Assembly: GCA_037925075.1 (NCBI GenBank)
Contig: JAXSNR010000001.1
Location: forward strand, 640,001-704,000
Source: Aquificaceae bacterium
Lineage (GTDB): Bacteria; Aquificota; Aquificia; Aquificales; Aquificaceae
Length of the DNA stretch: 64,000 bases
Direction of reading: 5' to 3'
Shown here: in pieces, positions 1 through 56,222 of the stretch
How positions within the stretch are numbered: position 1 is the first letter of the stretch
Layout of the letters: each line of letters starts with the position of its first letter
The notes under the pieces: model-generated
Databases searched by the model: none
What the model was told of the DNA's origin: nothing
What the model saw: only the letters and a program-made list of their open reading frames with translations
Position numbers and translations under genes: made by a program

Positions 1-117
1 CTTTGGAAGTTTGCCAGTGGACGCCCAAAGGGTCAGAGGCAAAGCACTGGATAAGCCTGTAGAGGCTCTGAAGCTGAAGGTTTTCGGACGCGGGTTCGAT
101 TCCCGCCGCCTCCACCA
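1..117 (+). ncRNA. ssrA: tmRNA, 3' portion (5' part outside window)
   Basis: Ends in the tRNA-Ala-like T-arm/acceptor GGACGCGGGTTCGATTCCCGCCGCCTCCACCA. No anticodon arm precedes it; the TAAGCCTGTAGA motif is typical of tmRNA. Confidence 0.9.
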
Positions 118-119
118 GA

Positions 120-899
120 TTAAAACTCCTCTAACTCTCCCTCCTCAAAGCTAACCTGTTTCATAGCGGATATTAGTCTTTCAAAAACCGTGTAAAAATC
201 CTCGTTCAAAACCCTTACGTATTTTCCGTAAGCCATCTGAAAGGCTTTTGAGACTATGTCTTCCTTTTGCAAGGCGTTTTTTAGCCCAAGCTCCTCATAC
301 CTTGTGTTTAAAACCTCCTTTGCTTCCAAAAGTACCTTAGCCCTCTCTTCCCTTTCCACCTCCGCTTCCTTTAAAGACCTTTCTAAGAAGGAATCCACCT
401 TTTTGAGAACCTTTTCAAAGGCATAGCCGGGGAATTTCTTGTCCGCCTCTCTGTCCACCACAAAGCCCACGGTGATAAGGTAAGCATCCTCTATAAACTT
501 TTCCAGCTTGTACTCGGGAAGGCTTGGATTCTTTTGAAGGTAAGACATAAATATCTCGTATGCCTGATGGGCTCTATCCTTTAGGGAAGGCACCTTTTCC
601 ACGTTTAGGGCTATTATGTAGTCCTTAGCCTCAGGTGGCAAGATTATGGCTGGGAATTCCTTCATGCCCAACTGCCTACCCGCCTCAAACCTGTGCTGTC
701 CGTTTATGACCTCATAGTAGCCATCTTCGGTGGGCACCACAGAGATGGGCTCTACAAAGCCTATCTTTTCCATAGACTCCATAAGCCTTTTTATGTGCAT
801 GTCAGAAAGCTCTCGCTGGATAGAAGGTATAAGAATCCTTTCCGCAGGGATTATGGTAAACTCTAATTCCAAGCCTCTTACAGGCTCATTGAACTTCAT
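120..899 (-). CDS. ParB/Sulfiredoxin N-terminal domain protein
   Basis: LMESMEKIGFVEPISV...YEVINGQHRFEA matches the ParB/Srx GxxR motif. Confidence 0.75.
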   Translation of the reverse strand: MKFNEPVRGLELEFTIIPAERILIPSIQRELSDMHIKRLMESMEKIGFVEPISVVPTEDGYYEVINGQHRFEAGRQLGMKEFPAIILPPEAKDYIIALNVEKVPSLKDRAHQAYEIFMSYLQKNPSLPEYKLEKFIEDAYLITVGFVVDREADKKFPGYAFEKVLKKVDSFLERSLKEAEVEREERAKVLLEAKEVLNTRYEELGLKNALQKEDIVSKAFQMAYGKYVRVLNEDFYTVFERLISAMKQVSFEEGELEEF

Positions 900-902
900 G
901 TT

Positions 903-1229
903 TTAACTTGCCTTTGCACCCTCCTTTATGTCTCTGTCTGGAACAATAAGGGAAAGATTTTCCCCGTCAGAAAGTGCCAGTACCATGCCCTGAGACTCCA
1001 CACCGAATATTTTTCTTGGCTTTAGGTTTGCCAGAATAAGCACCTTCTTTCCCACCAATTCCTCTGGGCTATAGTGCTTTGCTATGCCAGCCATCAAGGT
1101 ACGTTCTTCCTCTCCAAGGGAGACCCTTAATCTTAATAACTTTTCTGAACCCTCCACCCTTTCCGCGGAAAGCACCTTGGCAAGCCTTATGTCTAACTTT
1201 AAAAAGTCCTCTATGCCTACGAGTTCCAT
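903..1229 (-). CDS. metG: tRNA-binding OB-fold protein (methionyl-tRNA synthetase beta subunit / Trbp111-like)
   Basis: DFLKLDIR...SEKLL...AGI...NLKPRKIFGVESQGMVL tRNA_bind motifs. Confidence 0.8.
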   Translation of the reverse strand: MELVGIEDFLKLDIRLAKVLSAERVEGSEKLLRLRVSLGEEERTLMAGIAKHYSPEELVGKKVLILANLKPRKIFGVESQGMVLALSDGENLSLIVPDRDIKEGAKAS

Positions 1230-1241
1230 GGATATTATATT

Positions 1242-3554
1242 TTAATCTACCTTACCGCTACCGGGAACATGCCTCATAAACTCAATCAGTTCATAAACAA
1301 CCACATTTAGAGGGAAGAGATAATCTTCCTTCATTCCATCTTCGGTTTCTCTCCTTATAGTTATGTACACGTTTCTTTCCTTTGAGTACAGACTGAGCTT
1401 GCTAAAGGGAACCTGAAAGGCTTCGCTTTCGTACATGGAAAGGGCTATAAGAGTGAAAAGGAAAAGGTTGTGCTGTTGGGAATAGACCTCATCAGAAGAC
1501 CATCCTATCTTTTCCGTGTAAAAGACCTGAAGGGAGGGATGGTATATATCTTCAAACTCCCTTTGGGGGCTTGAGGGCTTTATGGCTATCGCCGCAGCAT
1601 CCTCTTCAAGCCTTATACCCAAAGCCTTGGCAAGGTCTTTGAACTGTTGAGTGTATATAACAAGGCAGTTTCTTTCTGCTTTCTTGGATACGTATGCGGT
1701 CTTTAGCTCCTTGTATCTTACAAAGATGGACTTTCTCTCAAACTCAGTCTCCGAACTAAGGTCCTTATAAAGAGTGCTGGCATAACCATCCTTTAGGGCA
1801 CTAATAAAGCAGAACCTACTCCTTTGGTCCTCAAGTCTTTCTTTTATGTATTTTCTTAGATTTTCCACATCTGCACCAAAGCTATCACACATAACAAAAA
1901 ACTTTTCCTCAAGCTGTATCTGAGCCTTTCCTTCCTTTGCATGTATGGTGTATAACTCGTACATGTAGTGCCTACTTGCGGAGGCTTGGGATAAATCACC
2001 CCTTTTGTAAAAGAAACGCGAGGAGGGTTTTTCAAGTAGAACATGAAGAACCACTTCCTCTGGAAGCTTAAAACCCTCATACTCAAAGTGTAGTATCTTA
2101 GAATCCTTGTAAAGACTTATGAGCATGTTTTTAAGGGATGAATCTGATATATTGGAAAGAAAGCGTTTGGTTATAGTCTGAAAGGGCAAGCCGTAGTAGT
2201 CATACACATCACTTATATAATCCCAAAAGTCATATTTTTGATCCTTTTCAAGGTCCGTGTTTAAAAGCAGAAGTACTCCTTCCATCTTGTCCTTCTGGTC
2301 CAGATTGCGTCTTAAAAAGCCGTTTATTCTTGCGGTAAAATACATGATAGCGTAGAGTAGATTAACAGACTCTTCGTGTTTTAGCTCTCTGGAATTACCT
2401 TCTAACTTTTTTAAGATATTAAAAAACCCTTCCCCTCCAAAAAGTTTGTGTATTTGTGCATTAACATCCTTTATGCTTATATTTACATCTCCAACATAAC
2501 GTTTCTTACTTATTAATTCAAGCTTATTTTTTAGCTCCTCTATATACTTCTCTGTACCATCTTCATAGAAAACAAAAAGCTCCAAGTCTCTGGCTGGCAC
2601 CTCGTAAAGTCCATAGGTCAAAGAAGTTTGTTTTTCTTTTGCCTCCTCCTTGAGAAAAACACCTACAAGCTTTTCGCTTTTTATCTCACCTTGAAGCACC
2701 TTTTTGACAAACTTTAACCAATCTTGGCGAAGTTTGGTAAGGTTTTCTTCCTTTAGAGCCTCATCAAGAAGTGCCTCCAAATCTTTTAGGCTTTTTCCTT
2801 CTTCTTCTAGATGGTATTCAAGGTCCTTAAGCTCCTTGTTTTCTGATAGCCTCTGCCACAGTTTTTGCTTTGTGTCTTGCTTTCTGGTGTACATGCTCAC
2901 GTTGGAGACCAAAATTACGTTCTCAAAGCGGTCAAAATTTACAGGAAACAGATAGTAGGCTAAGGTGGAATAGGGAAAGCGATAGTGGGAACCAAAAACG
3001 CCCTCTTTTATGTTTTTTAGCATCTCTTTAACATCTTTTAAGTAGTCCCTTACCCATTCATCTTCTGTGTTTTCAAGCCACTCTCTCAAAAGCTCCTCCC
3101 TTAGGTCATACTTTAGCTCCTCTGTAAGCTCCTCATCTTCGTGTCCCCTTACCCTCAAAAATACCATACCCGCATGGCTTGAAAGCTCAGAGGGATTACC
3201 TATATCCAACTCCACCACTTTAAACTGGGCTCTTTGGTCTCTTCTGTAAAAACTCGCCTTCTTGTCGGACTTTATAATCTTAAAAAGGTTTTGCCATTTG
3301 CTAATGATCCGTTGTTCATAAAGTGCCTTGTAAGGCACATGATAATCTATATTTTCAAGAAAGTCCTTAAACACTTGGTATGCTATTTTCTTATCTATCT
3401 TATCTATTAACATTTTGATAAGCTTTGCCAAGTTTTCCAAGTATTGAGGATTTTTGTTATAGAAAATCCCAGAGTACATGAAATCCCTACCAAGACGCTT
3501 ACCCTCCGCAAAGGCATCCATCCTATCGTCCCATTGTTTTCCCGGTATTTCCAT
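1242..3554 (-). CDS. Uncharacterised 770-aa protein with a putative divergent Argonaute-like MID-PIWI region
   Basis: Long ORF with a strong RBS. GLPFQTI...NMLISLYK resembles the pAgo MID motif, and the C-terminal LIALSMYESEAFQVPFSKL resembles the end of a PIWI domain. The family call is an inference. Confidence 0.55.
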   Translation of the reverse strand: MEIPGKQWDDRMDAFAEGKRLGRDFMYSGIFYNKNPQYLENLAKLIKMLIDKIDKKIAYQVFKDFLENIDYHVPYKALYEQRIISKWQNLFKIIKSDKKASFYRRDQRAQFKVVELDIGNPSELSSHAGMVFLRVRGHEDEELTEELKYDLREELLREWLENTEDEWVRDYLKDVKEMLKNIKEGVFGSHYRFPYSTLAYYLFPVNFDRFENVILVSNVSMYTRKQDTKQKLWQRLSENKELKDLEYHLEEEGKSLKDLEALLDEALKEENLTKLRQDWLKFVKKVLQGEIKSEKLVGVFLKEEAKEKQTSLTYGLYEVPARDLELFVFYEDGTEKYIEELKNKLELISKKRYVGDVNISIKDVNAQIHKLFGGEGFFNILKKLEGNSRELKHEESVNLLYAIMYFTARINGFLRRNLDQKDKMEGVLLLLNTDLEKDQKYDFWDYISDVYDYYGLPFQTITKRFLSNISDSSLKNMLISLYKDSKILHFEYEGFKLPEEVVLHVLLEKPSSRFFYKRGDLSQASASRHYMYELYTIHAKEGKAQIQLEEKFFVMCDSFGADVENLRKYIKERLEDQRSRFCFISALKDGYASTLYKDLSSETEFERKSIFVRYKELKTAYVSKKAERNCLVIYTQQFKDLAKALGIRLEEDAAAIAIKPSSPQREFEDIYHPSLQVFYTEKIGWSSDEVYSQQHNLFLFTLIALSMYESEAFQVPFSKLSLYSKERNVYITIRRETEDGMKEDYLFPLNVVVYELIEFMRHVPGSGKVD

Positions 3555-3557
3555 GTC

Positions 3558-6500
3558 TTACCCCTCCTCAAGAAGTTTATATATAAATTCTATGGGGAAT
3601 TTGGCAAACCTGCCACTTAACACCTCCTTGTAAGGATAGTCTTCTCCAAGAGGGATTATCGCATATTCCTTTACACCCTCTATGTTTTTACAGCTTGTGG
3701 TAATATCTAAGCCTCCCCCTAGCACATCCGCCCCACCTCTGCCCACTCTACTTGATATGGCAAACCTAAGATGATGATCTCCCTGATTACCCAAAACATG
3801 CTCTGTAAAGACCCATGCGTACACAGGAATTAAAAAGGTAATTCCATAAACTTCCCTTGTGGCAATTTCGTTCAGAAAATACTCTATATCCCTTGTTTTG
3901 TCCTCGTTGTGTTCATTTAGCTTGTCTTTTACTTTATTAAAGTAAAACATTGCCTTCTTTCTCTTTTCGTTATCAAAGCTTATGTGCAAAGTGCCCCATA
4001 AAAGCACGTAGGGATGATAGTATTCTATGTTTTCAAAGGTTTTGGGAACATCGTTGGTATATACAGAGATTCCAGAGGAGATCTCTTTTACCAAGAAATG
4101 TATATACTTTGCCAGTTCTTGATCCTTTGAGGATTCCATCATATAAACATCTTCAAGGAACTGCATTATGTTTTCGAGGTCAGAAAAGCGGTTCATCCTA
4201 TATACGGTGCTATGCTGTGCGGGAACGGGAACTATAACGGGACGGTCTGGAGTTTTTAGAAAGTCTTCTATTATCTTTTGAACTACAAAGTCAAGTTGAA
4301 GCTTTTGTTTGAGATGCTCCCTTTTGTAAAGGAGCCTTACCAAATTCTCGTCCTGATACTCCACAAGTTGTGTTAGCTTTTCAATAGTGTAATCTTTTTC
4401 TTTTTGAACCATGTATATAAGGTGTATGTACCTTGGCGTGTTTTCTGTTTTTTCATCGCCCCTTGCCCTTGATATGGCTTGAATGATTTCCACAAGGTTT
4501 TGTTCTATGCCCCAATCGGTTATGACCACAAAGATTCTATCCACAGGTTTATGAGGCCTGCTAAAGTCCAAGCCCCTTGAAACTGCGGAGGTGCCCATTA
4601 TAACATCTTGATCTCCCTCGTTTATGTCCCTCTGACTTTTTCTTGAACTTGCGGTTATGTATAGGTTGGAGACTTCTTTACTGTCAAAATACTGGCGAAG
4701 CTCCGCTATCATTTCCTTGTCTTGCACATACAAAAAGGCTGTGCTTTTCTTTTGTAGGTTGCCAATTATATAATCTCCTATTAGTTCAGCAAGTTTTACT
4801 TTTCCATCATCATTCAATTCCACATCAAGCATAAACTTTTTGTTTATGTACAAACCGCTTGCGGGATATCCATGCTTTGCGTATATCTCAAGAGGTATGC
4901 CCTTGTACGCAGTTTTCAATTCTGGCGTATAGTTGCAAAGAACAAGAGAATCGGGAATTACTTGGTAGGATTCAAACTCTCTCATAAGCCTCTCCAAAAG
5001 CTCGGGGGAGTATCCGTTGGCATCAAACAGGTACAAGTACGCCTTTCCGCCTTTTTCTTTTACCTTTGAAACAAAATCAAACATCCTTTGTATGGCATCA
5101 AGCCCATTTCTGTATCCATAAAACTCGTCAAGGATAATGTGAATGTGATAATTCTTTACCACCTTTGACCTAAGAAGTTTTTCAAGATGTTTAGAAGTGT
5201 TGCCGTAGTCCGTATCCACTATGGCTTGTATGGTGGAAAAGCTCCATATCTGTAAGTGTTTTTCGTCTACGGCTTTGAGTATTTTTTCCACAGTTCTTTT
5301 GAGTATGCCCTCTTTCTTTTCTACATCTTCATAACCTTGTCCTGTATGCCTTTTATACTTATTTTCCGAGTATGATTTTCTTTCGTATATGACTTTTACC
5401 TTGTCGGCACCAGACTTTTCTACTTGGTCCTTTTCCTTTTCTATAAGACTTACTCTTGTTGCCATGTACAGTACTATGTGCTTTCCTTGAGAGTTTAGTA
5501 TAAGGTTTCTCAGAGTTGATGTTTTTCCACTTCCTGCGGAATGAAGCAAAGCAATGGCTTTACAGTCTTCTTGAGAATTAAAAAATTCATTTAGCCTATC
5601 CTTTACATCGTCCCGGGCTTCCTGTATAGGGTTTGTCTGTATAAAAATGGTCTCTTTTTCCCTTTGTTTCATCTCCTCTATGTACCTTTGTATATCCTGC
5701 AAAGCCTCCTTTTCCAACCTTTTACTCTTTCCCGCTCTTTGACCTACGGTTTCATCAAGCTCCTCGTAAGCCCATTCTTTACTTTTAAGCTCTCTATAAA
5801 TCTCCTTTGCCCTTTGTTTGTAGCTTGAAAGCTTGGAAATGTCCCAGGGTTCAACTACAAAGCGTGTTCTCAGAGGCTCTGCGGCAGGATACAAAAGCTC
5901 AAGGCAAAGCTCCCTAAGGTCTTTTGTCCACATCTCCGTGAGATAATCCACCCCATAGCAAATCAGCTGAGAAAAGCCCTTTAGCTCCACAAATACATCT
6001 TGAAGTTCCTTAAGTGGCTCCTCAAGTAGTACGAAGTTTTTAACAAAGTTAAGAAAGTTCAACTCACCTAAGGAAATGCTAACTGGCACTCCTACATTTA
6101 CGACGGGTAGTCTTGGCAAGTTATCTACTCTGCCTCTGTCAAAGACATCCTTTAGCCAAGAGAGAAGTCCAGAAAGCTTAAAATCCACTATGTATAGGGT
6201 TCCATTTCTCCTATAGACAAGGTCCGCATTTCTCCACACTATGTCCGCGGACTCCTCTCCCATTTCGACCTTTTCAAGCTCTATGTTTTTTCCATCTCCC
6301 GCATAAAGAAGACCGCCGTAGTATCCAAGCATGTAGGTGGCAAGCACATATATTCTCTGTGCGGTTTCTGGTCTTATGTCAGTCCCAATCTTATCCCAGT
6401 CTTGTATGGGTCTTTCAAGCTCGCTTATAATTCCTTGCGGTAAGCCTTCAGACCTTAAAAAGTCAAAGAGATGCCCTTTAAAGCCTCTTATAAGCTCTGG

Positions 6501-6575
6501 CCTTGCCTTTTCTAAAAATCCAACCTTAAAAGCCCCCTCAAAGACGAAACCTGCAAGCTCGTCTATCTCCCTCAT
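3558..6575 (-). CDS. PD-(D/E)xK nuclease-SF2 helicase fusion protein
   Basis: N-terminal ADLV...VDFK...QLICY nuclease motif. Helicase motifs: Walker A HSAGSGKT, Walker B ILDEF, motif V SRGLDF, motif VI QAISRARG. Confidence 0.75.
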   Translation of the reverse strand: MREIDELAGFVFEGAFKVGFLEKARPELIRGFKGHLFDFLRSEGLPQGIISELERPIQDWDKIGTDIRPETAQRIYVLATYMLGYYGGLLYAGDGKNIELEKVEMGEESADIVWRNADLVYRRNGTLYIVDFKLSGLLSWLKDVFDRGRVDNLPRLPVVNVGVPVSISLGELNFLNFVKNFVLLEEPLKELQDVFVELKGFSQLICYGVDYLTEMWTKDLRELCLELLYPAAEPLRTRFVVEPWDISKLSSYKQRAKEIYRELKSKEWAYEELDETVGQRAGKSKRLEKEALQDIQRYIEEMKQREKETIFIQTNPIQEARDDVKDRLNEFFNSQEDCKAIALLHSAGSGKTSTLRNLILNSQGKHIVLYMATRVSLIEKEKDQVEKSGADKVKVIYERKSYSENKYKRHTGQGYEDVEKKEGILKRTVEKILKAVDEKHLQIWSFSTIQAIVDTDYGNTSKHLEKLLRSKVVKNYHIHIILDEFYGYRNGLDAIQRMFDFVSKVKEKGGKAYLYLFDANGYSPELLERLMREFESYQVIPDSLVLCNYTPELKTAYKGIPLEIYAKHGYPASGLYINKKFMLDVELNDDGKVKLAELIGDYIIGNLQKKSTAFLYVQDKEMIAELRQYFDSKEVSNLYITASSRKSQRDINEGDQDVIMGTSAVSRGLDFSRPHKPVDRIFVVITDWGIEQNLVEIIQAISRARGDEKTENTPRYIHLIYMVQKEKDYTIEKLTQLVEYQDENLVRLLYKREHLKQKLQLDFVVQKIIEDFLKTPDRPVIVPVPAQHSTVYRMNRFSDLENIMQFLEDVYMMESSKDQELAKYIHFLVKEISSGISVYTNDVPKTFENIEYYHPYVLLWGTLHISFDNEKRKKAMFYFNKVKDKLNEHNEDKTRDIEYFLNEIATREVYGITFLIPVYAWVFTEHVLGNQGDHHLRFAISSRVGRGGADVLGGGLDITTSCKNIEGVKEYAIIPLGEDYPYKEVLSGRFAKFPIEFIYKLLEEG

Positions 6576-6611: not shown

Positions 6612-7427
6612 CTAAAACCTTGCTTCGCAGACCTGTTCGTATTCTATAAGCTCGGTTATCTTTGGCTCTTTGCCACAAAGAGGGCAGTTTGGGTCTTTGC
6701 GAAGCTTTACCTTTCTGAAATCCATGGAAAGGGCATCCATTATAAGAAGCTTGCCCACTAAAGGCTCACCAATACCTAACAAGACCTTTATGGCTTCTGT
6801 TGCCTGAATACAACCCATTATGCCACCTATTGAGCCAAGGATTCCAGCTTCCTGGCAGGATGGCACAAGCCCGGGAGGTGGAGGCTCTGGATAAAGACAT
6901 CTGTAGCAAGGAGAGTTTTCTTTATCTCTGTAGTCAAAGACAGAGATCTGTCCTTCAAACCTAAGCATTGCCGCAGATACAAGGGGCTTCCCAAGAAAGT
7001 AGCATGCGTCGTTTATGAGAAACCTTGTGGGAAAGTTGTCGGTGCCATCCAAAACCACATCGTAGTCCTTTATGATATCCAGTATATTGGACTTGTTGAG
7101 CATGGTGTTGTAGGTTATCACCTTCACATCTGGGTTTAGCTTTTCCACAGTCATACGTGCGGACTCTACCTTTGGAACGCCTACCCTTTCCGTGTTATGA
7201 AGTATCTGCCTTTGTAGATTAGAAAAGTCCACCACATCAAAGTCCACTATACCTATGGTACCCACGCCTGCAGCCGCAAGGTAGTATATGGCAGGAGAGC
7301 CAAGCCCACCAGCACCTACAACCAACACCTTTGACTTCAAAAGCTTTTCCTGCCCTTTGCCACCAACTTCTGGCAGGATTATATGCCTTGCATACCTTTT
7401 TATCTGTTCTTCTGTGAACTGGAACAT
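6612..7427 (-). CDS. moeB: Molybdopterin-synthase adenylyltransferase (MoeB/ThiF family)
   Basis: RYARHIIL, GAGGLG, DVVDFSNLQRQ, DGTDNF, PCYRC and CPLC motifs. Confidence 0.9.
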   Translation of the reverse strand: MFQFTEEQIKRYARHIILPEVGGKGQEKLLKSKVLVVGAGGLGSPAIYYLAAAGVGTIGIVDFDVVDFSNLQRQILHNTERVGVPKVESARMTVEKLNPDVKVITYNTMLNKSNILDIIKDYDVVLDGTDNFPTRFLINDACYFLGKPLVSAAMLRFEGQISVFDYRDKENSPCYRCLYPEPPPPGLVPSCQEAGILGSIGGIMGCIQATEAIKVLLGIGEPLVGKLLIMDALSMDFRKVKLRKDPNCPLCGKEPKITELIEYEQVCEARF

Positions 7428-7546: not shown

Positions 7547-8890
7547 TCAGAAAATCCATTGGAACTGAAGGGTAACTGCATCGTTTTTTATGCTGTTCCT
7601 CTGCTTATCAAACTTTGTGTACTCAAGGGTCCACCGGAAGTTCTCGTTTATGAAGTAATAGTTAATACCTAAGCTTATTTGCTTTATGTTTCCCAAATAG
7701 CCTGTAGCACTTGTATTTGGACCCACAAAGTTTGTGGCATCTCCGTAGAGTCTTGCACTTACATCGGTTCCAACTTGCACTATTTGAGGCTTATACTCGG
7801 AATAGGTTATGTATGGCTCAAACTTGTGCTTAGACTTAGGATTTATCATATACCCTGTTTTCACAAGCCAGAAGTCGTTTTTTATACTTCTGTTAGGGTA
7901 AACATTGTTAGCACCATCAATTAGTACTAGCTTGTTAAACTTAACCTGTCCAAGTTCTGCGACAAAAGATATTGGGCCATAATGCCATGCAAAATCCACT
8001 CCATAGAACTTCATATCAGCTTTGTTATCAAGAATACTGTCAGCCAGAGCTTGTGTAGGTACTGATAGAGGGTTAGGTAGTAATAGATAGGGTATTCTTA
8101 CGTTAACCGTGCCAGCTCCGTTCTGAGGATTACCGTTGCCAAGAAAGCCTGGGGATATACCCTGTGTATCGGTTATTATATGTTGGTCTATCTTATTTTG
8201 AAAGGCATAGGATACTCCAAAGGTCATACCCTTTCTCTTTCCAAGGTATGTATCCCTGTAAAGCCAATTGTATATAGCAGGTTTGCCCTCTTGCTCACTA
8301 AGAGTTACAGTTCCTCGCAGGGCGACAAGTGGGCTATTAGAAGAATTGCCTCTAGCCTTCGAGAGACAGGTACCTACACCCGCGTTTGGCGCAGTAAAAC
8401 CACATAACGGAGTATTATTAGAAACTCCCACAATGGTATCATCCCACGGATTTCTAACGTTTTTAAAGCCCCCAAACAAACCAAAAAATCCATCAAAGGT
8501 AATTCTGGAATAACCCTGTCCTTTGCTTGCTGCTCTTATATGGGCGTAGCCACCAAAGGCTCTACAATTAACATCCCCAATAGCCAAGTGGGTCCACCTG
8601 AGCGTTGCATTTGTCCTGTCCAAATCTATGTTGTCATAAGCTCTTTGGAACTTCCCCCTACCCAGAGGAACTCTGGGATAGCCTAAGTATAGGTCAAGGG
8701 TTATACCTTTCATATCTGTCATGGCACTTGGAACGAGCACCGCATCCAGTTCGTGAATAGCTCCATTGTTCCTATTGCTCTGCCTCCTTCCATGTGTTGG
8801 TTATCCACCAAAAGGTGTATGTTAAAGGTTTTTTCCTAAACCTTTATCTCTCAAAACAAAGTAAGCTTCCCACAAATCTCTTGTTTTCTC
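7547..8890 (-). pseudogene. Outer-membrane porin (OprO/P-like beta barrel), 5'-decayed; intact frame 7547-8800
   Basis: C-terminal TLQFQWIF beta-signal and amphipathic strands, but no signal peptide. The upstream in-frame sequence reads as protein but has TAA stops at 8801-8803 and 8822-8824. Confidence 0.6.
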
Positions 8891-8891
8891 C

Positions 8892-9398
8892 TTACTGCAC
8901 TTTTATGTAGGCAAAACCCTTTGATTGCAGTTCTCCAATGGTAGCAACTCCAGAAGGCACTATCTTGGTGAATTCGTGAAGCTTATTAGCATCAAGCTTT
9001 AGTCTTTGCAAGGTTATGTTACATATATAAAAATCAACACCATAAGCCAACAGATCTTTTTCCATCTGGTAAAGTTCGTCAATCTTTATAACTTCTGTCT
9101 CCCATGGGCTACCAGAAAGGTCCTTCATAAAAAACTTAACACCCGCACCGTGAGCCACAACAACAATCTTTATCTTGAAGGGGTCATTGTCATAAACAGA
9201 CAGGTGATTTCTTATATTGCCCAACATTGCCTTGAACCGTGGTTCCTGAGGGAAATCACAGTGATAAACCACTCCTATCTTAGCCTCCTTTTTAATATCC
9301 TCCATCTTCACTTTAGGTGGAGCTGCTTCCGCAAGTTTGTTTATAAAGGGAACAGAAGCTAACACACTCGCTAATTTAAAAAAACCTCTTCTATCCAT
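8892..9398 (-). CDS. Tat-exported DsrE/DsrF-like protein
   Basis: Start MDRRGFF (Tat motif) after a GGAGGTG RBS. VVYH...VVAHGAG...FYICNITL...VPSGV...GFAYIK match the DsrE family. Confidence 0.8.
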   Translation of the reverse strand: MDRRGFFKLASVLASVPFINKLAEAAPPKVKMEDIKKEAKIGVVYHCDFPQEPRFKAMLGNIRNHLSVYDNDPFKIKIVVVAHGAGVKFFMKDLSGSPWETEVIKIDELYQMEKDLLAYGVDFYICNITLQRLKLDANKLHEFTKIVPSGVATIGELQSKGFAYIKVQ

Positions 9399-9441
9399 GT
9401 CATCACCTCCATAGGATTTAATCCTTCCGTAAGATATAAAA

Positions 9442-9458
9442 TGCAAGAACTATGCCAA
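9442..9458 (-). promoter_or_regulatory. sigma54 (-24/-12) promoter for the DsrE-like gene
   Basis: TTGGCATAGTTCTTGCA gives GG-N10-GC spacing, next to a sigma54 activator gene. Confidence 0.8.
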
Positions 9459-9521
9459 AACTGGTAATAAATATTTTGCTGATAAATCAGATATTTCCCA
9501 CTTGCTGTGTTGGATAAACCA

Positions 9522-9555
9522 TGTCAATTTGTCAAAGATCTTGCCATTTTGACAA
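9522..9555. promoter_or_regulatory. Putative enhancer (UAS) for the NtrC-family activator
   Basis: Two TGYCA-N3-TGWCA boxes (9522-9534, 9542-9554) about 65-95 bp upstream of the -24 element. Confidence 0.5.
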
Positions 9556-10860
9556 TTACATAAGATTATACTTCTTTAGCTTTCTGTAGAAGGTCCTCAA
9601 GGGAATATCCAAAAGTTCTGCAGCTTTCCTCTTGTCAAAATTAACTCTTCTCAATACTTCCTCAATCTTTATCCTCTCCGTTTCCTTAAGACTGTCAGGT
9701 TTTCTATGAAAGGATATGTTAAGATGATTTTCCTGGATCAAAGCTTCATCACATAGTAGTACTGCTCTCTCTATTATGTTCCTTAGTTCTCTTACATTAC
9801 CGGGATAATGGTAAGAAAGGAGAGCTGTTTTAGCTCTTTCCGTAAAGCCCTTTATTTTTTTATTGTACTTTCTACAGAATTTATCAAGAAAGTATTCAGC
9901 TAATTGTATTATATCTTCCTTTCTTTCCCTTAAGGGAGGGACTCTAATTTCAATTGTGTTTAGCCTGTAATATAAATCTTCTCGAAAAAGCCCTTCCTCA
10001 ACTAGCTTTTTAATATCTTTGTTTGTTGCACAGATAATGCGCACGTTACTCTCCACTTCTCTTCTACCGCCTAGTCTATAAAATTTCTTTTCCTCTATTG
10101 CCCTCAGAAGTTTAGCTTGCAGCTTTAGGTCAAGATCTGTTATCTCATCCAAAAAGAGCGTTCCCTCTTTGGCTAACTCCATAAAACCTGCTTTTTGATT
10201 GCTTGCACCGGTAAATGCTCCCTTTTCATAGCCAAAAAGCTCAGCCTCCAAGAGTTCATTGGGTATGGCGGATATATTTATGGCTACAAAGGGTTTATCT
10301 TTTCTATCACTCAGACTATGTATAAGTTTAGCAATAAGCTCTTTACCAACTCCGCTTTCTCCTTGTATTATAACGCTACAATCACTGCAAGCTATCCTTC
10401 CTATTATATCCATAACATTTTTCATTGCAGGGCTTGCTACTATCATATCCTCTTCCATCAACCTTTTTTCGCTTTTTAGGAGGCTGTTCTCCCTCTTCAG
10501 TCTTAACATGTCTTCGACCTTTTTTACTACAAGCTCAACCTCCTCTAGACTGCAAGGTTTTGCCAAGAAGTCAAAGGCTCCTAGCTTCATAGCCTCAACT
10601 GCTATCTTTATGGTTCCATGACCGGTGATAACAACCACTTCCTGAATACTATGATTCTCTTTTACCTTTTTAAGTATATCCATACCGTTCATATCGGGCA
10701 AAAGCAGGTCAAGTATGATTAGGTCATAATGCTGTTTATCAATGAACTCCATTGCTAAATTACCGCTTGAAACATGGTCGACGGAGTGCCCTTTTTCTCT
10801 TAGGAACTTGGATATCAACCAACCGTATTCTACCTCATCTTCGACTACAATTATCTTCAT
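9556..10860 (-). CDS. sigma54-dependent response regulator (NtrC/AtoC family)
   Basis: Receiver domain, GESGVGKE, ELFGYEKGAFTGA, FREDLYYRL, YPGNVREL and a Fis-type HTH. Confidence 0.95.
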   Translation of the reverse strand: MKIIVVEDEVEYGWLISKFLREKGHSVDHVSSGNLAMEFIDKQHYDLIILDLLLPDMNGMDILKKVKENHSIQEVVVITGHGTIKIAVEAMKLGAFDFLAKPCSLEEVELVVKKVEDMLRLKRENSLLKSEKRLMEEDMIVASPAMKNVMDIIGRIACSDCSVIIQGESGVGKELIAKLIHSLSDRKDKPFVAINISAIPNELLEAELFGYEKGAFTGASNQKAGFMELAKEGTLFLDEITDLDLKLQAKLLRAIEEKKFYRLGGRREVESNVRIICATNKDIKKLVEEGLFREDLYYRLNTIEIRVPPLRERKEDIIQLAEYFLDKFCRKYNKKIKGFTERAKTALLSYHYPGNVRELRNIIERAVLLCDEALIQENHLNISFHRKPDSLKETERIKIEEVLRRVNFDKRKAAELLDIPLRTFYRKLKKYNLM

Positions 10861-12758
10861 GCGTCTCCACTTTTAATATATACACGAAACTCACAGCCCT
10901 TATCTAAGTTTTCATACTCTATCCTACCACCAATATCCTCCACAAACCTCTTCGCAATCGACAAACCCAAGCCAAAACCTCTATCTTTTTTCGTATAAAA
11001 GGGTTGAAAAATATCCTCAGAGTCTACACCTGGACCTTCATCCTTTATCTTCCAAACTATGAAGGAATTAGCGTCTTCAATGTTCACGTAGACTTTACCT
11101 TGCACTGGAGATGCATCTATGGCGTTATCTATGAGGTTAATAAGAACCTGTTCCAGTTTCCATGGATATGTTAGGATTTTTGGGCGCTTTGTTTTTGCGT
11201 TTAGTTCCACGATTACCTTCTTATGCTTCGCTTTTAGATTGATTATATCTAACAAATCTTTTGTGAAGTTTACAGGGTTCATTTCCTGTGGCGCACCATC
11301 ATAGCTCTTTGCCATGTATAGCAACCTGCTTATGGTATTCTTTGCTCTTTCAACATTTTTAAGAACTACCTCTGCCATTTCCTTTACCTCTTTTTCATTG
11401 GACACATTCCTTATATACTCAGCATATGCCATTATAGAAGCAAGAGGGTTGTTGAGTTGATGTGCTAAGGAACATGCCATTTCTCCTGCCATAGCCAACT
11501 TAGAATACCATCCAACTAGAATTTCAAGATTCTTTCTCTCTGTAATATCCTTTATATGGAAAAGTGTATAATTCTTGTCCTCTAATTCAAGAGGTATTGA
11601 AGTTACACTGACACATTTAGTTTTTCCGCTTACGCTTACAGTAATTTCTGGTATGAACAGAAAAGAACCAGTAGTAAAGTGTTCACTCAAATTCTTTATA
11701 TCCATCTTCAGAACTTCACTGGGCATAATATCAAACATTTTTAAAAAATTCTCATTTACCATTTCTATGGTACCCATTTCATCTTCTACCAGTACAAGAG
11801 CGTCTCCAAGTTTATTAAATAGGTTTACATATACGCTTTTTTCTTTCTCAATTTTATCAAGAAGTTCCTGAAAGGCTTTTGCAAGCACGTAAACTTCTCC
11901 GTATCCATCAATTTCCAGATTCTTTCCACCTGCATAACTCATAACGGATAACTTTAAATCCTCAAGAGGTTTAAAAATCCTTTTCACGGTAAAAAAGCCT
12001 ATCAAAAGCAGTCCACTGCATAAAACTAAGTTTAATAGAAGAGAGGCTTTTAGGAAATCGTAAGCATTTTCATAAACAAAGTCTTCCGGTTCGCTTAACT
12101 CAATAAGCATGTCTGTATCTCTTATGTGAGTTTGAAAATTAAGCGCTTTTCCACTTGCTTGGTTGTTCAATAACAATATAGTTTGTCCATTAGTATCGGC
12201 TAATCTAATCGTGGCATTATGTATACCATATTGGTGGGTGTAATCTTTAAGCAAGTCTTTTAAATTCATAGAGCAGACTATAAAACCCATAGGTACATTG
12301 CTGTTTATATCAAATACCTTTAAGAGCATGTACTTCTCATCAGCATTTCCTGAATACATGCCCAACACTTCATCGGTCCATCCTAGTTTACTCAACATTT
12401 GAGGTAAACCTTCAAAGTTAATAAACCTTGTTTCAAGGTAAATGAGTTTACCCTTTGTATCATAATAGGCACACCCTTCAATATGTTCAATATCTCCTGT
12501 CAACCTCCATAGTATTTCTTTCAAGTTTACATTTAGGCTTCTGTACTTTGTTGTTATAGACTTAATTTTTATCTGTGTGGCTATGATATCTTCCTTAAAT
12601 CTATCTGCAAGAATCCTAGTTATAGCGCCCTTATTTTCTAGCCATGAAGTTCTAAGTTGTTCTTTCAACACATGAAAATAAATAAAAACAGAAAGAAGTT
12701 GAATAAAAATTATTAGAACAATAACCAATAGTATCCTATTTTTGATGCTTTGCTTCAT
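10857..12758 (-). CDS. Membrane sensor histidine kinase (PAS-like domain)
   Basis: Two TM segments; H-box LAHQLNNPL, N-box NLIDNAIDA, G-boxes DEGPG and GFGLGL. Confidence 0.9.
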   Translation of the reverse strand: MKQSIKNRILLVIVLIIFIQLLSVFIYFHVLKEQLRTSWLENKGAITRILADRFKEDIIATQIKIKSITTKYRSLNVNLKEILWRLTGDIEHIEGCAYYDTKGKLIYLETRFINFEGLPQMLSKLGWTDEVLGMYSGNADEKYMLLKVFDINSNVPMGFIVCSMNLKDLLKDYTHQYGIHNATIRLADTNGQTILLLNNQASGKALNFQTHIRDTDMLIELSEPEDFVYENAYDFLKASLLLNLVLCSGLLLIGFFTVKRIFKPLEDLKLSVMSYAGGKNLEIDGYGEVYVLAKAFQELLDKIEKEKSVYVNLFNKLGDALVLVEDEMGTIEMVNENFLKMFDIMPSEVLKMDIKNLSEHFTTGSFLFIPEITVSVSGKTKCVSVTSIPLELEDKNYTLFHIKDITERKNLEILVGWYSKLAMAGEMACSLAHQLNNPLASIMAYAEYIRNVSNEKEVKEMAEVVLKNVERAKNTISRLLYMAKSYDGAPQEMNPVNFTKDLLDIINLKAKHKKVIVELNAKTKRPKILTYPWKLEQVLINLIDNAIDASPVQGKVYVNIEDANSFIVWKIKDEGPGVDSEDIFQPFYTKKDRGFGLGLSIAKRFVEDIGGRIEYENLDKGCEFRVYIKSGDA

Positions 12759-13717
12759 TTAAAAACTCTGTCCGCCAAAAGGATTTTACTGTTATCTAAA
12801 ACATATCCCATTTCCTTTAACACGCTCTCATTTATAGATAGTTTAACCTTTGTTACCTTTTCAAAGGGTATATCCTCAACCCTTCTCCCTTTTATTATCT
12901 GATAAGCAATATAGGATGCTTGATAGCCCTGGTCATATCCGGAACTACCGTAAGCCACCGCACAACCTTTCATGGCATGTTCTGGAGACAAGCACACAAC
13001 CGGTATATGATAAAACCTTGCGTAGTGCAGTATGTAGGAAATTAAAAAATTATCTGTATAAAAACAAGGTGTGATCACAATAGCCTCAAACCCATCTTCT
13101 TTCATATGGCTTATTACATATTCAAGGTCCTGTACGTCCTTAACCATCAAGGGATAGATTTTTAATCCATGTTTTTCTCCAGCTTTTATAGTCAATCCAG
13201 TTGCATATTTTGAAGCTTCAAAGTTAGGCGTGCAGAAAACTAAAGCCTTTTTTATATGAGGGAACAATCTTTTGAATATTTCTATACGTTTTTCCATCAG
13301 CTCTGTATTTAGATTATCAACTCCTGTTATGCCTTCTATAGGTCTGTTTTCATTATCTACAAAACCCCAGACCTGTAAAGCAGTTCCACCCATTATCACA
13401 ATCGGAGGTCTAAAATCATCTTTTACCTTTTTAATGTAATAAGCTTCAAGGCTTCCACCTACCGCTACAAGGCTGAATTCCTTCTCCCTCTTTACTATCT
13501 CAATAGCTTTCTCTTCTAAACTTTTTAGACTATTTTCTCCATTGTATATTACAAATTCGACATCATGAAGCCCAAGATTTTTAAGTCCGTCCATGAAACC
13601 ATCCAGCTTAGTTAGCCTCCCTTCTCCAGATATTAGAACACCTATAACTATCTTCCTTTTACCAAACTCACAAGAAACAACCATAACAAATAGCAAAATT
13701 GTCAGGATAAGCTTCAT
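12755..13717 (-). CDS. ABC-type substrate-binding lipoprotein (ABC_sub_bind-like), probable co-sensor
   Basis: Lipobox-like VVSC and ITGV...KRIEIFKRLFP...QGYQA...IIKG...DIP pattern. It overlaps the kinase start and has no permease genes nearby. Confidence 0.75.
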   Translation of the reverse strand: MKLILTILLFVMVVSCEFGKRKIVIGVLISGEGRLTKLDGFMDGLKNLGLHDVEFVIYNGENSLKSLEEKAIEIVKREKEFSLVAVGGSLEAYYIKKVKDDFRPPIVIMGGTALQVWGFVDNENRPIEGITGVDNLNTELMEKRIEIFKRLFPHIKKALVFCTPNFEASKYATGLTIKAGEKHGLKIYPLMVKDVQDLEYVISHMKEDGFEAIVITPCFYTDNFLISYILHYARFYHIPVVCLSPEHAMKGCAVAYGSSGYDQGYQASYIAYQIIKGRRVEDIPFEKVTKVKLSINESVLKEMGYVLDNSKILLADRVFK

Positions 13718-39182: not shown

Positions 39183-39700
39183 TAAACAGGAGAGCTCTTC
39201 TTAGTTTTCTCCTTTCTATACCTGTTGTGGGCAGGGCAAGGGCGATGGATATTGAAGTTCACGGTTGCATCATAAAGGTAGATAGACTGTACAGAGTAGA
39301 GGAAGAAAGAATGCTCTTCCAATGGGTCAAGGATGAAGGTTCAGGGGTTTACTCTGTGGGTTTTATGCAAATACTTTCCTCGCTTATATATCCCCTTTAT
39401 GCTATAAGGATAAAGCCTGTTGGCACTGTGGTAGAGTTTGATGGGAACCTTGCGGTAGTGGAGTCTGGTAAAAGGGTTTCCACCTTTCCAAGCCCGCTTA
39501 GTGGGAAGGTGGTAGATTCTAACAAGTCTTTGGAAAAGGAGCCTTCCCTAATAGTTAGCAAACCCTACGAAAGCTGGATCGTAAAGATAAAGGCTGAAAA
39601 GCCCGAGGAACTCAAAAAGCTAAAAAGGGCTGAGGACATACGGGAGATTTTAAGGCGTATAATAGTCAAAGAAAAGATAGAATGCCTGCCCAAAAGATAG
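39179..39700 (+). CDS. GcvH/LbpA-like lipoate-binding protein with Tat-like N-terminus
   Basis: VESGK lipoylation motif, SPLSGKV, PYESW, N- and C-terminal Cys; NRRALL signal. Confidence 0.75.
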   Translation: MINRRALLSFLLSIPVVGRARAMDIEVHGCIIKVDRLYRVEEERMLFQWVKDEGSGVYSVGFMQILSSLIYPLYAIRIKPVGTVVEFDGNLAVVESGKRVSTFPSPLSGKVVDSNKSLEKEPSLIVSKPYESWIVKIKAEKPEELKKLKRAEDIREILRRIIVKEKIECLPKR

Positions 39701-39795
39701 GGAGAGTTTGATGCGCTGGTGCGGTCCCGGGACTTCAAATCCCGTGAGGGGTCCTGTTAGGGGTCCCTGGAGGGTTCGATTCCCTCACTCTCCCG
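39700..39795 (+). tRNA. selC: tRNA-Sec (anticodon TCA)
   Basis: 8-bp acceptor stem GGGAGAGT/ACTCTCCC, anticodon loop CT-TCA-AA (TCA at 39735-39737), long variable arm, GTTCGATTC T-loop. Confidence 0.95.
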
Positions 39796-56146: not shown

Positions 56147-56222
56147 TGGCTCCGGGGGAGGGACTCGAACCCCCAACCTGACGGTTAACAGCCGCCTGCT
56201 CTGCCCGTTGAGCTACCCCGGA
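56147..56222 (-). tRNA. tRNA-Asn (GTT)
   Basis: Reverse complement TCCGGGGTAGCTCAA...CTGTTAA...GGTTCGAGTCC...CCCGGAGCCA, 76 nt. Confidence 0.95.

Follow-up and report, generated by a model that had tools for sequence, protein, structure and literature searches.

A highly divergent, predicted Argonaute and a nuclease-helicase form a two-gene cassette in Aquificaceae that may act on foreign DNA

In the DdmDE system of Vibrio cholerae, an inactive Argonaute that cannot be recognized from its sequence is paired with a protein that joins a superfamily 2 (SF2) helicase to a PD-(D/E)xK nuclease. DdmD is of the XPD type, with its helicase N-terminal and its nuclease C-terminal, and the pocket metal of DdmE is held by the side chains of Q376, E401, K674, and E678 (10.1101/2024.05.10.593530). 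In ApsAB of Escherichia coli ST38, a helicase-nuclease gene is followed by an Argonaute-like gene that is recognized by structure only. ApsA is described as a protein of about 1,450 residues with a C-terminal nuclease and ApsB as lacking an RNase H fold and carrying the motif Y-x3-K..QG; the aromatic, Gln, and Lys residues of the MID-like motif are required for anti-plasmid activity, the equivalent Lys being essential (PMC11096173). The pPIWI-RE systems consist of three genes, which encode a divergent and often inactive MID-PIWI protein, a DinG helicase containing a Cys-rich region, and a separate restriction endonuclease (Burroughs et al. 2013, PMC3702460). Here, we analyzed a two-gene cassette in a 64,000-nucleotide stretch of an Aquificaceae bacterium (assembly GCA_037925075.1, contig JAXSNR010000001.1, positions 640,001 to 704,000; hereafter, the window). 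The cassette encodes a 770-residue Argonaute-fold protein and a nuclease-helicase. By analogy with these systems, the former is probably a guide-loaded sensor that brings the latter, as a processive DNA degrader, onto foreign DNA.

A preliminary description of this DNA had flagged positions 1242 to 2600 as a MID-PIWI-like region. That segment corresponds to residues 319 to 770, the last 452, of a longer open reading frame (ORF), which is preceded on the same strand by the gene for its partner:

1242..3554, minus strand: intact ORF of the 770-residue Argonaute-fold protein (P0001), with Foldseek and VIA matches to Argonautes; model predicted local distance difference test (pLDDT) 85.4, predicted template modeling score (pTM) 0.85
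3558..6575, minus strand: nuclease-helicase partner (P0002), 1,005 residues; model pLDDT 84.8

The helicase gene lies upstream and ends 3 nt before the Argonaute-fold gene, which is present as a single copy in the genome. The preliminary description did not mention the co-encoded nuclease-helicase, and it is this partner that explains the protein.

The AlphaFold2 model of the Argonaute-fold protein was built from 25 sequences, and its domains are as follows (rmsd, root mean square deviation):

1269..2624, minus strand: L2-MID-PIWI-like core, residues 311 to 762; VIA aligns residues 312 to 762 with 11 to 418 of the 1w9h chain (Z 10.3, rmsd 4.9, 333 aligned)
2097..2591, minus strand: MID domain, residues 322 to 486 (Z 7.2, rmsd 3.2, 117 aligned to the MIWI MID domain, 4p1z)
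1269..2057, minus strand: PIWI (RNase H-ordered) domain, residues 500 to 762, from the secondary structure of the model and conservation
2625..3554, minus strand: N-terminal lobe, residues 1 to 310, mostly helical; residues ~113 to 135 (3218-3150) pair with the opening strand of long Argonautes

In a Foldseek search, the informative titles among the rows listed were all Argonaute, Piwi, or short-Ago complex, the best match being RsAgo (E 8.2e-8; template modeling [TM] score 0.30 relative to the query and at most 0.46 relative to the target). Of the 20 best rows in a VIA search of 48,161 chains, 19 (Z 10.2 to 7.4) carried an Argonaute or Piwi name and one an uninformative title; the first clearly unrelated chain appeared at Z 6.1. 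In a second VIA comparison, MILI reached Z 11.1 (rmsd 4.6, 349 aligned) and both TtAgo and AfAgo Z 10.3; the tool gives Z 7 to 8 as its typical chance level, so that the Argonaute values of 10 to 11 are above it but not high. The aligned core, beginning near residue 311, covers the entire A. fulgidus Ago chain. The PIWI elements of the model (strands 500-510, 530-540, and 543-555, helix 561-574, strands 579-585 and 609-617) follow the order of RNase H. A Rossmann-like MID domain at residues 322 to 486 followed by an RNase H-ordered PIWI domain agrees with the MID-PIWI assignment of the preliminary description, which a predicted structure without these two domains would have refuted. Because it is the structure prediction, and not the motif, that matches Argonautes, we regard the identity as confirmed at that level: the prediction is of a highly divergent Argonaute, in which a MID domain precedes an RNase H-type PIWI domain. 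The shared fold itself shows no function.

The first ~320 residues had been described as unrecognizable and as possibly replacing N/PAZ or APAZ, which held only in part. Most of the lobe is helical, and no PAZ domain was recognized in the full-length model searches. However, VIA pairs model residues 113 to 128 with the start of long Argonautes (113-114 with TtAgo 3-4 and with hAgo2 34), and besides this N-terminal strand an L2-like start aligns with long prokaryotic Argonautes (pAgos). The profile comparison of residues 165 to 285 with the L1/PAZ region of a canonical pAgo gave a weak match (hhalign P 0.008).

At the sequence level, the 770-residue protein had no significant match in Pfam, PADLOC, NCBIfam, or PHROGs, and none among PDB sequences with either a single-sequence or a profile query. 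None of 25 family members matched anything in Pfam significantly; PF02171 (Piwi) matched 0 of the 25 and also missed the protein in its own genome (G000). Profile-profile comparison of the family with 14 canonical Aquificota pAgos was not significant for the full length or for the PIWI part, and the MID stretch gave a weak match (hhalign probability 1.7%, P 0.028). The generic aromatic..Q..N..K pattern occurs in 14/14 canonical pAgos and in 27/30 family members; because it also matches 226 of the 739 long ORFs of the same genome, the MID motif by itself is weak evidence for Argonaute identity. A stricter pattern found the Argonaute-fold ORF only (1/739), but it was derived from the family itself and, being circular, was not counted. 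The viral contigs searched held no relative, and repeating the homologue search with a wider profile returned the same 12 proteins and added nothing.

Conservation of the putative guide pocket was assessed by column counts over 30 family sequences with a mean identity of 32%:

2234-2097, minus strand: pocket motif Y441, W444, Q459, K475, N476, S480, K483, K486

Ten residues are invariant (Y441, W444, Q459, K475, N476, S480, E508, S710, R735, and E755 in 30/30), T460 is kept in 29/30, and positions 483 and 486 are basic throughout (K27/R3 each). K719 is near-invariant, and E711 is E28/D2. In a register taken from a weak hhalign match, W444, Q459, and N476 correspond to Y439, Q454, and N472 of a canonical 706-residue pAgo (L063). 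The position four after W444, where canonical pAgos have Lys, is R in 13 sequences and S in 12 (S448 in the window copy); N accounts for three more, and K and A for one each. The segments on which the preliminary description relied lie where it had placed them: GLPFQTI is residues 455 to 461 (2192-2172), NMLISLYK is 476 to 483 (2129-2106), VLHVLLEK is present and ends at K509, and LIALSMYESE..VPF spans residues 702 to 717. Its view that the Gln, Asn, and Lys of the MID pocket are retained (Q459, N476, and K/R483) while the first Tyr/Lys pair is altered was borne out by the wider family. We consider that Trp in place of Tyr at position 444 would be a conservative stacking change, and that a pocket with Q459, N476, and two basic residues would fit a 5'-phosphate as well as anything else. 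The unusual guide 5'-end preference suggested in the preliminary description found no support. The C-terminus varies freely in the family, and the ends are conserved in the canonical pAgo set; because of this variable C-terminus, a side-chain ligand is proposed for the pocket metal. By analogy only, E711, K719, and E755 are candidate ligands, and the side-chain ligation described for DdmE is the model that would suit such a protein.

The catalytic tetrad was mapped by strand order. E508 (2033-2031) ends PIWI strand 1, where canonical pAgos carry the first catalytic Asp. A conserved acid is absent from the end of strand 4 (A586: A19 T4 Q3 P2 S2), from the loop after strand 3, and from the position seven residues past the C-terminal proline in the 30 sequences. 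Because three of the four tetrad positions hold no conserved acid, slicing by the 770-residue protein is unlikely, as the preliminary description had supposed in calling it a non-slicing protein; its statement that the DEDX residues are altered applies to these three positions, whereas the first keeps an invariant Glu.

The partner is predicted to consist of three parts:

5781..6575, minus strand: likely PD-(D/E)xK-type nuclease domain, residues 1 to 265 (E13, D118, D131-x-K133, Q203-x3-Y207)
4221..5627, minus strand: SF2 helicase core, residues 317 to 785 (Walker A 345-352, D483-E484, Q699-R703-R705-G706)
3561..4220, minus strand: C-terminal alpha/beta domain, residues 786 to 1005, with a conserved tail, from conservation and the model

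In the N-terminal part, N116, D118, K133, Q203, and Y207 are kept in 30/30 sequences, E13 and D131 are nearly invariant, and G9, D118, Q203, and Y207 are present in 19/19 more diverse homologues. A nuclease of the PD-(D/E)xK type is likely, the family label coming from motif resemblance; the Q-x3-Y pattern resembles that of RecB/AddB-type PD-(D/E)xK nucleases. The best repeated Pfam match of this domain, DUF2800, came from 2/19 homologues at E 0.18, which is not significant, and was discarded.

The motor shows the two RecA domains of an SF2 helicase, with Walker A, DE, and motif VI, in both sequence and model. Its motifs are invariant, and Pfam Helicase_C is found in 28/30 members. In VIA, the helicase model matched the Ino80 ATPase best (Z 18.9, rmsd 4.0, 348 aligned), tied with RecG, HrpB, and other SF2 motors, and the helicase profile found DEAD-box RecA2 domains as its best matches among PDB sequences (E 1e-4). 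DdmD does not appear in the 50 VIA rows that were listed, which excludes nothing. No column inside the motor exceeds 45% Cys in a 40-row alignment, and because there is no such Cys cluster, the partner is not DinG-like. Library scans of the partner gave no match to an APAZ family, the C-terminal domain being barely covered by the fold search.

Set against the described systems, the pair most likely works like DdmDE and ApsAB, by analogy. With DdmDE, it shares two genes, a probably inactive Argonaute that sequence searches do not reveal, and an SF2 motor with a nuclease-like domain. DdmDE is further characterized by a 5'-phosphorylated DNA guide, recruitment of its helicase, and plasmid elimination, and its Argonaute by the C-APAZ and INS domains of a long-C pAgo. 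However, the nuclease-like motifs of the Aquificaceae pair are N-terminal (13-207) to the motor (317-785), the reverse of DdmD; the DdmDE complex chain 9ezy_B (657 residues) reached only Z 5.9 (rmsd 5.4, 269 aligned), against Z 10 to 11 for canonical Argonautes; no large PIWI insertion as in DdmE is evident; and the host is an Aquificaceae bacterium rather than V. cholerae. With ApsAB, the pair shares the order of a helicase-nuclease gene followed by a structure-only Argonaute and the MID-like aromatic/Gln/Lys motif. It differs from ApsA in having its nuclease-like domain at the N-terminus and 1,005 rather than ~1,450 residues, and from ApsB, by the latter's description, in having an RNase H-ordered PIWI model and W-x3-(R/S)..Q-T in place of Y-x3-K..QG. 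The ApsAB supplements held no Aquificae names (14 of 15 files searched) and none of six plasmid-homologue accessions (see below; 11 of 15 files searched).

Like the pPIWI-RE systems, the nearest named family by Atlas features (0.94), the locus combines a divergent MID-PIWI protein with an SF2 helicase and a likely nuclease of the restriction fold. The Aquificaceae system nevertheless has two genes, a fused nuclease-like domain, and no Cys cluster, and PF13032, PF18157, and PF13111 (RNaseH_pPIWI_RE, MID_pPIWI_RE, and pPIWI_RE_X) matched 0/25 members at E 0.1. The invariant Arg and Glu reported for pPIWI-RE lie in an extension of the PIWI sheet, whereas R735 and E755, also invariant, are C-terminal to the extension strands, as judged from the secondary structure of the model.

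The long-B and short pAgos (RsAgo, AfAgo, and SPARTA/SPARDA/SPARHA) provide the best Foldseek matches and likewise have an inactive PIWI domain. They are Pfam Piwi-positive, and their conserved C-terminus enters the pocket; the Aquificaceae family, in contrast, is missed by Pfam Piwi, has a variable tail, and is encoded with a helicase rather than with APAZ-fused or small effectors. The DEDX tetrad of slicing long-A pAgos is not matched, E508 being the only acid by strand order. The pair thus belongs to none of the described families, lacking at least one defining feature of each. No description of the pair was found in the literature searched, in which coverage of subscription papers was thin.

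We next consider how the cassette is distributed among Aquificota. The Argonaute-fold profile was found in 41/178 genomes of the phylum and the helicase profile in 43/178, with both in 37; the four genomes with the Argonaute-fold profile alone all had partial matches. The six with the helicase alone fall into two sets. Two have an adjacent ORF of 754 or 790 residues whose motifs are collinear (hhalign P 0.003 and 0.11); the other four hold a 1,087-residue protein that is not adjacent (four of five searched) and resembles the neighbor found in cyanobacteria (hhalign probability 88.5). The latter arrangement characterizes one genus of another family (L100:6413-15793 in G146, and G140, G142, and G145), where the helicase has ~1,160 to 1,190 residues and the probable cyanobacterial-type partner lies apart; three of these genomes also carry a canonical pAgo.

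Within the window's family, the Argonaute-fold profile occurs in 39/89 genomes. It is frequent in some genera (18/24 in the window's genus, 7/7, and 8/11), and in other families it was found in only 1/50, 0/8, 0/2, and 0/28 genomes. Canonical Piwi was detected in 21/178 phylum genomes (13/89 in the family), is absent from the window's genome, and occurs in 2 of the 41 genomes with the Argonaute-fold profile. Thirty loci, some of them redundant, were examined for their neighborhoods. The pair is adjacent by profile in 28, with the helicase first in 27, and no third gene is conserved across the set. Over 18 loci, pairwise identities of the two proteins are correlated (rho 0.94), and the two trees broadly agree, both of which kinship alone can yield; the helicase tree is a quick one with long branches meeting, and no direction of transfer was drawn from it.

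The genes that flank the pair in the window are as follows:

6612..7427, minus strand: thiF-family gene, upstream flank of the cassette (Pfam ThiF 4e-88), 36 nt from the helicase gene
903..1229, minus strand: tRNA-binding-domain gene, downstream flank (Pfam tRNA_bind 3e-29)

Rfam matched nothing in the 36-nt gap. The thiF gene is directly upstream of the pair in 11/30 loci, and outside the genus the remaining loci lie in many different neighborhoods. In five of seven congeners without the helicase that were searched, thiF was found in four, and in three of them the tRNA-binding gene directly follows it, which constitutes an empty site. Both cassette genes have a GC content of 0.39 to 0.41, compared with 0.445 for the genome, which puts both in the bottom tenth among the 739 long ORFs.

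Broken and rearranged copies were also observed. Both genes are fragmented at L059:6964-12465 (G076), and the Argonaute-fold gene is in two pieces at L040:10001-12357 (G064). At L061:9248-10135 (G052), a 295-residue remnant fuses the start and end of the Argonaute-fold gene, without a helicase, just before a 1,120-residue ORF and away from thiF. One assembly (74% completeness, 4% contamination) holds two complete pairs (G063:C54 and G063:C28), possibly from mixed strains. At L103:11021-17946 (G041), the order is reversed, with the Argonaute-fold gene first, as in cyanobacteria, and split into ORFs of 292 and 579 residues; what we take from its motifs to be a HerA-like ATPase fragment lies upstream of it, and presumably an ATPase-containing cluster downstream.

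Relatives of the helicase extend beyond the phylum. Six records on cyanobacterial plasmids carry helicase homologues (hhalign 99.3%), and through these, further homologues were found on plasmids of Acinetobacter, Cupriavidus, and Acetobacter. Six of the seven plasmid loci inspected have an unannotated ORF of 1,012 to 1,191 residues directly upstream of the helicase homologue, and the seventh has a truncated helicase beside a transposase. Profile comparison of the Argonaute-fold family with these cyanobacterial and proteobacterial neighbors of 1,000 to 1,190 residues (for example, WP_011316674.1 and WP_180047513.1) was not significant (hhalign P 0.14 to 0.69). However, their motifs, judged by eye, follow the same order as in the Aquificaceae family, and in an Atlas feature search with the homologue P0006, unnamed 1,000-residue clusters of Cyanobacteriota and Bacillota scored 0.95, followed by pPIWI-RE clusters at 0.94. 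From the collinear motifs and the feature similarity, we infer that the plasmid neighbors may be relatives of the Argonaute-fold family.

A two-gene block 97 to 99% identical is present on plasmids of four cyanobacterial genera, near integrase/recombinase genes (L083 and L084, 4436-11142), suggesting that it moved recently. On an Acinetobacter piscicola plasmid (L088:2100-11700), a methyltransferase gene precedes the large hypothetical gene and the helicase homologue, which are followed by HNH endonuclease and WYL genes, and the Acetobacter locus has a third co-oriented ORF overlapping the end of the helicase. A metagenome scan found no locus with a single cyanobacterial protein as query and seven loci with a two-sequence alignment. 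Homologues with 38 to 69% identity also occur in archaea-labeled assemblies (P0009, P0010, P0053, P0054, and L041), but these likely reflect mis-binning or sporadic transfer in hot springs. No archaeal range is claimed because the helicase was found in only 1/401 genomes of the phylum concerned, that of G178 itself.

The Aquificaceae pairs might, tentatively, be the thermophilic branch of a separate and widespread Argonaute-plus-motor class, in which a nuclease-first SF2 helicase and a hyperdivergent Argonaute clade range from Aquificota to Cyanobacteriota, Pseudomonadota, and perhaps Bacillota. In such a class, the guide pocket would rely on Trp and have its metal site rebuilt, and DNA destruction would be guide-controlled and processive, here at 60 to 80 C.

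We favor a guide-loaded sensor because a strictly kept 5'-end pocket, a probably inactive Argonaute, a co-traveling motor with a nuclease-like domain, and the behavior of an accessory cassette occur together. A short, 5'-phosphorylated guide, probably of DNA, would have its 5' end stacked on W444 and held by Q459, N476, K475, and K483, as extrapolated from DdmDE and ApsAB, and a side chain, possibly that of E711 or E755, would provide the pocket metal ligand. By the same analogy, the guide-loaded, non-cutting Argonaute would find matching foreign DNA, and would physically recruit and load the neighboring helicase. The recruited nuclease-helicase would then unwind and degrade the target DNA, in an anti-plasmid or anti-phage role. 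The empty sites in congeners, the varied neighborhoods outside the genus, the low GC content, and the plasmid-borne helicase homologues were counted in support of this reading.

Several observations weigh against it. The likeness of the model to Argonautes is modest (TM 0.30 to 0.46, rmsd 4.4 to 7, 6 to 13% identity), no sequence profile ties the family to Argonautes significantly, and the residue mapping comes from the order of secondary structure and a weak hhalign match. The canonical Y-x3-K pair is replaced by W-x3-(R/S), and the Lys reported as essential in ApsB is S448 in the window copy. For the partner, K133 becomes S/T in distant homologues, and the nuclease-like domain found neither a Pfam match nor a solved structure in a profile sequence search. 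Moreover, within the window's genus the pair is common and fixed between housekeeping genes, with no integrase or defense gene adjoining, a stable position that also fits a housekeeping role.

This last point leads to the main rival, in which the protein would be a guide-free end sensor in repair or replication, its MID pocket binding 5'-phosphorylated ends or forks and loading an AddAB-like resection or fork machine. The stable slot between thiF and the tRNA-binding gene, the lack of a conserved third defense gene or integrase, the frequency of the pair in some genera, and its single copy in the window's genome are in line with such a role, and the Q-x3-Y motif resembles that of RecB/AddB nucleases. 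We judge it unlikely all the same, since near-complete congeners lack the pair and show a clean empty site, other families almost never have its Argonaute-fold gene, and in G076 both genes are broken together; its low GC content and the plasmid-borne helicase homologues also weigh against it.

Alternatively, the guide-loaded Argonaute could serve abortive infection, with target recognition unleashing the partner on DNA indiscriminately and killing the cell, as in several short and long-B pAgo systems. Inactive Argonautes often activate toxic effectors (PMC13618286), obligate pairing fits a sensor and its effector, and Ago chains of SPARDA, SPARTA, and SPARHA lie within ~2 Z units of the best match. 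Nevertheless, a processive SF2 motor fused to a nuclease suits targeted, directional degradation, as described for DdmD, no cell killing is reported for ApsAB (PMC11096173), and no APAZ-bearing effector was recognized. These considerations make indiscriminate killing quite improbable.

A system guided by RNA or directed at RNA, acting on transcripts or R-loops and nearer to the pPIWI-RE model, appears very improbable. The pPIWI-RE clusters score just under the unnamed ones in the Atlas, the helicase profile prefers DEAD-box RecA2 domains, and the altered pocket is compatible with other guide types. Against this stand the lack of any pPIWI_RE Pfam match in 25 members, a partner that is not DinG-like, a motor whose tied structural matches include many DNA translocases, and the fact that PD-(D/E)xK domains mostly cut DNA. 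Finally, slicing from a rebuilt site made of E508 and acids from elsewhere (E533, E616, E711, or E755) can practically be set aside: E508 and E755 are invariant and E711 nearly so, but the strand-4 position and the Glu-finger loop hold no acid, the acids at E533 (22/30) and E616 (24/30) vary, and a dedicated nuclease partner travels with the protein.

If guide-loaded sensing is correct, an inactive Argonaute would have been joined to a helicase-nuclease once more, independently of DdmDE/ApsAB and pPIWI-RE. With only two genes and probable thermostability, such a guide-directed DNA degrader would be useful for plasmid curing or DNA deletion. The searched libraries (Pfam, PADLOC, NCBIfam, and PHROG) miss the pairing, and because the family outnumbers canonical pAgos in Aquificaceae, censuses of Argonautes come out too low. 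How a degenerate MID pocket reads its guide could be approached directly by mutation through the invariant W-Q-K-N-S-K pocket and the lone E508.

The remaining features of the window are as follows:

1-117, plus strand: 3' end of a transfer-messenger RNA (tmRNA), cut by the window edge (Rfam)
120-899, minus strand: ParB_N-domain protein, 259 residues, beside the tmRNA (Pfam search)
39700-39795, plus strand: tRNA-Sec
56147-56222, minus strand: tRNA-Asn

The tmRNA end was missing from the ARAGORN output and was found by Rfam only. It is probably not an insertion target for the cassette, because two genes separate it from the cassette and the same arrangement persists in congeners that lack the cassette. 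The 259-residue ParB_N gene at the tmRNA site is kept in some congeners (G058) and absent there in others (G055 and G052). On the other side of thiF, a minus-strand cluster (7547-13717) encodes a possible outer-membrane protein of 397 residues, a 184-residue protein whose leader is twin-arginine-like, a response regulator of the sigma-54 type, and a sensor kinase, as judged by reading the translations rather than from database matches.

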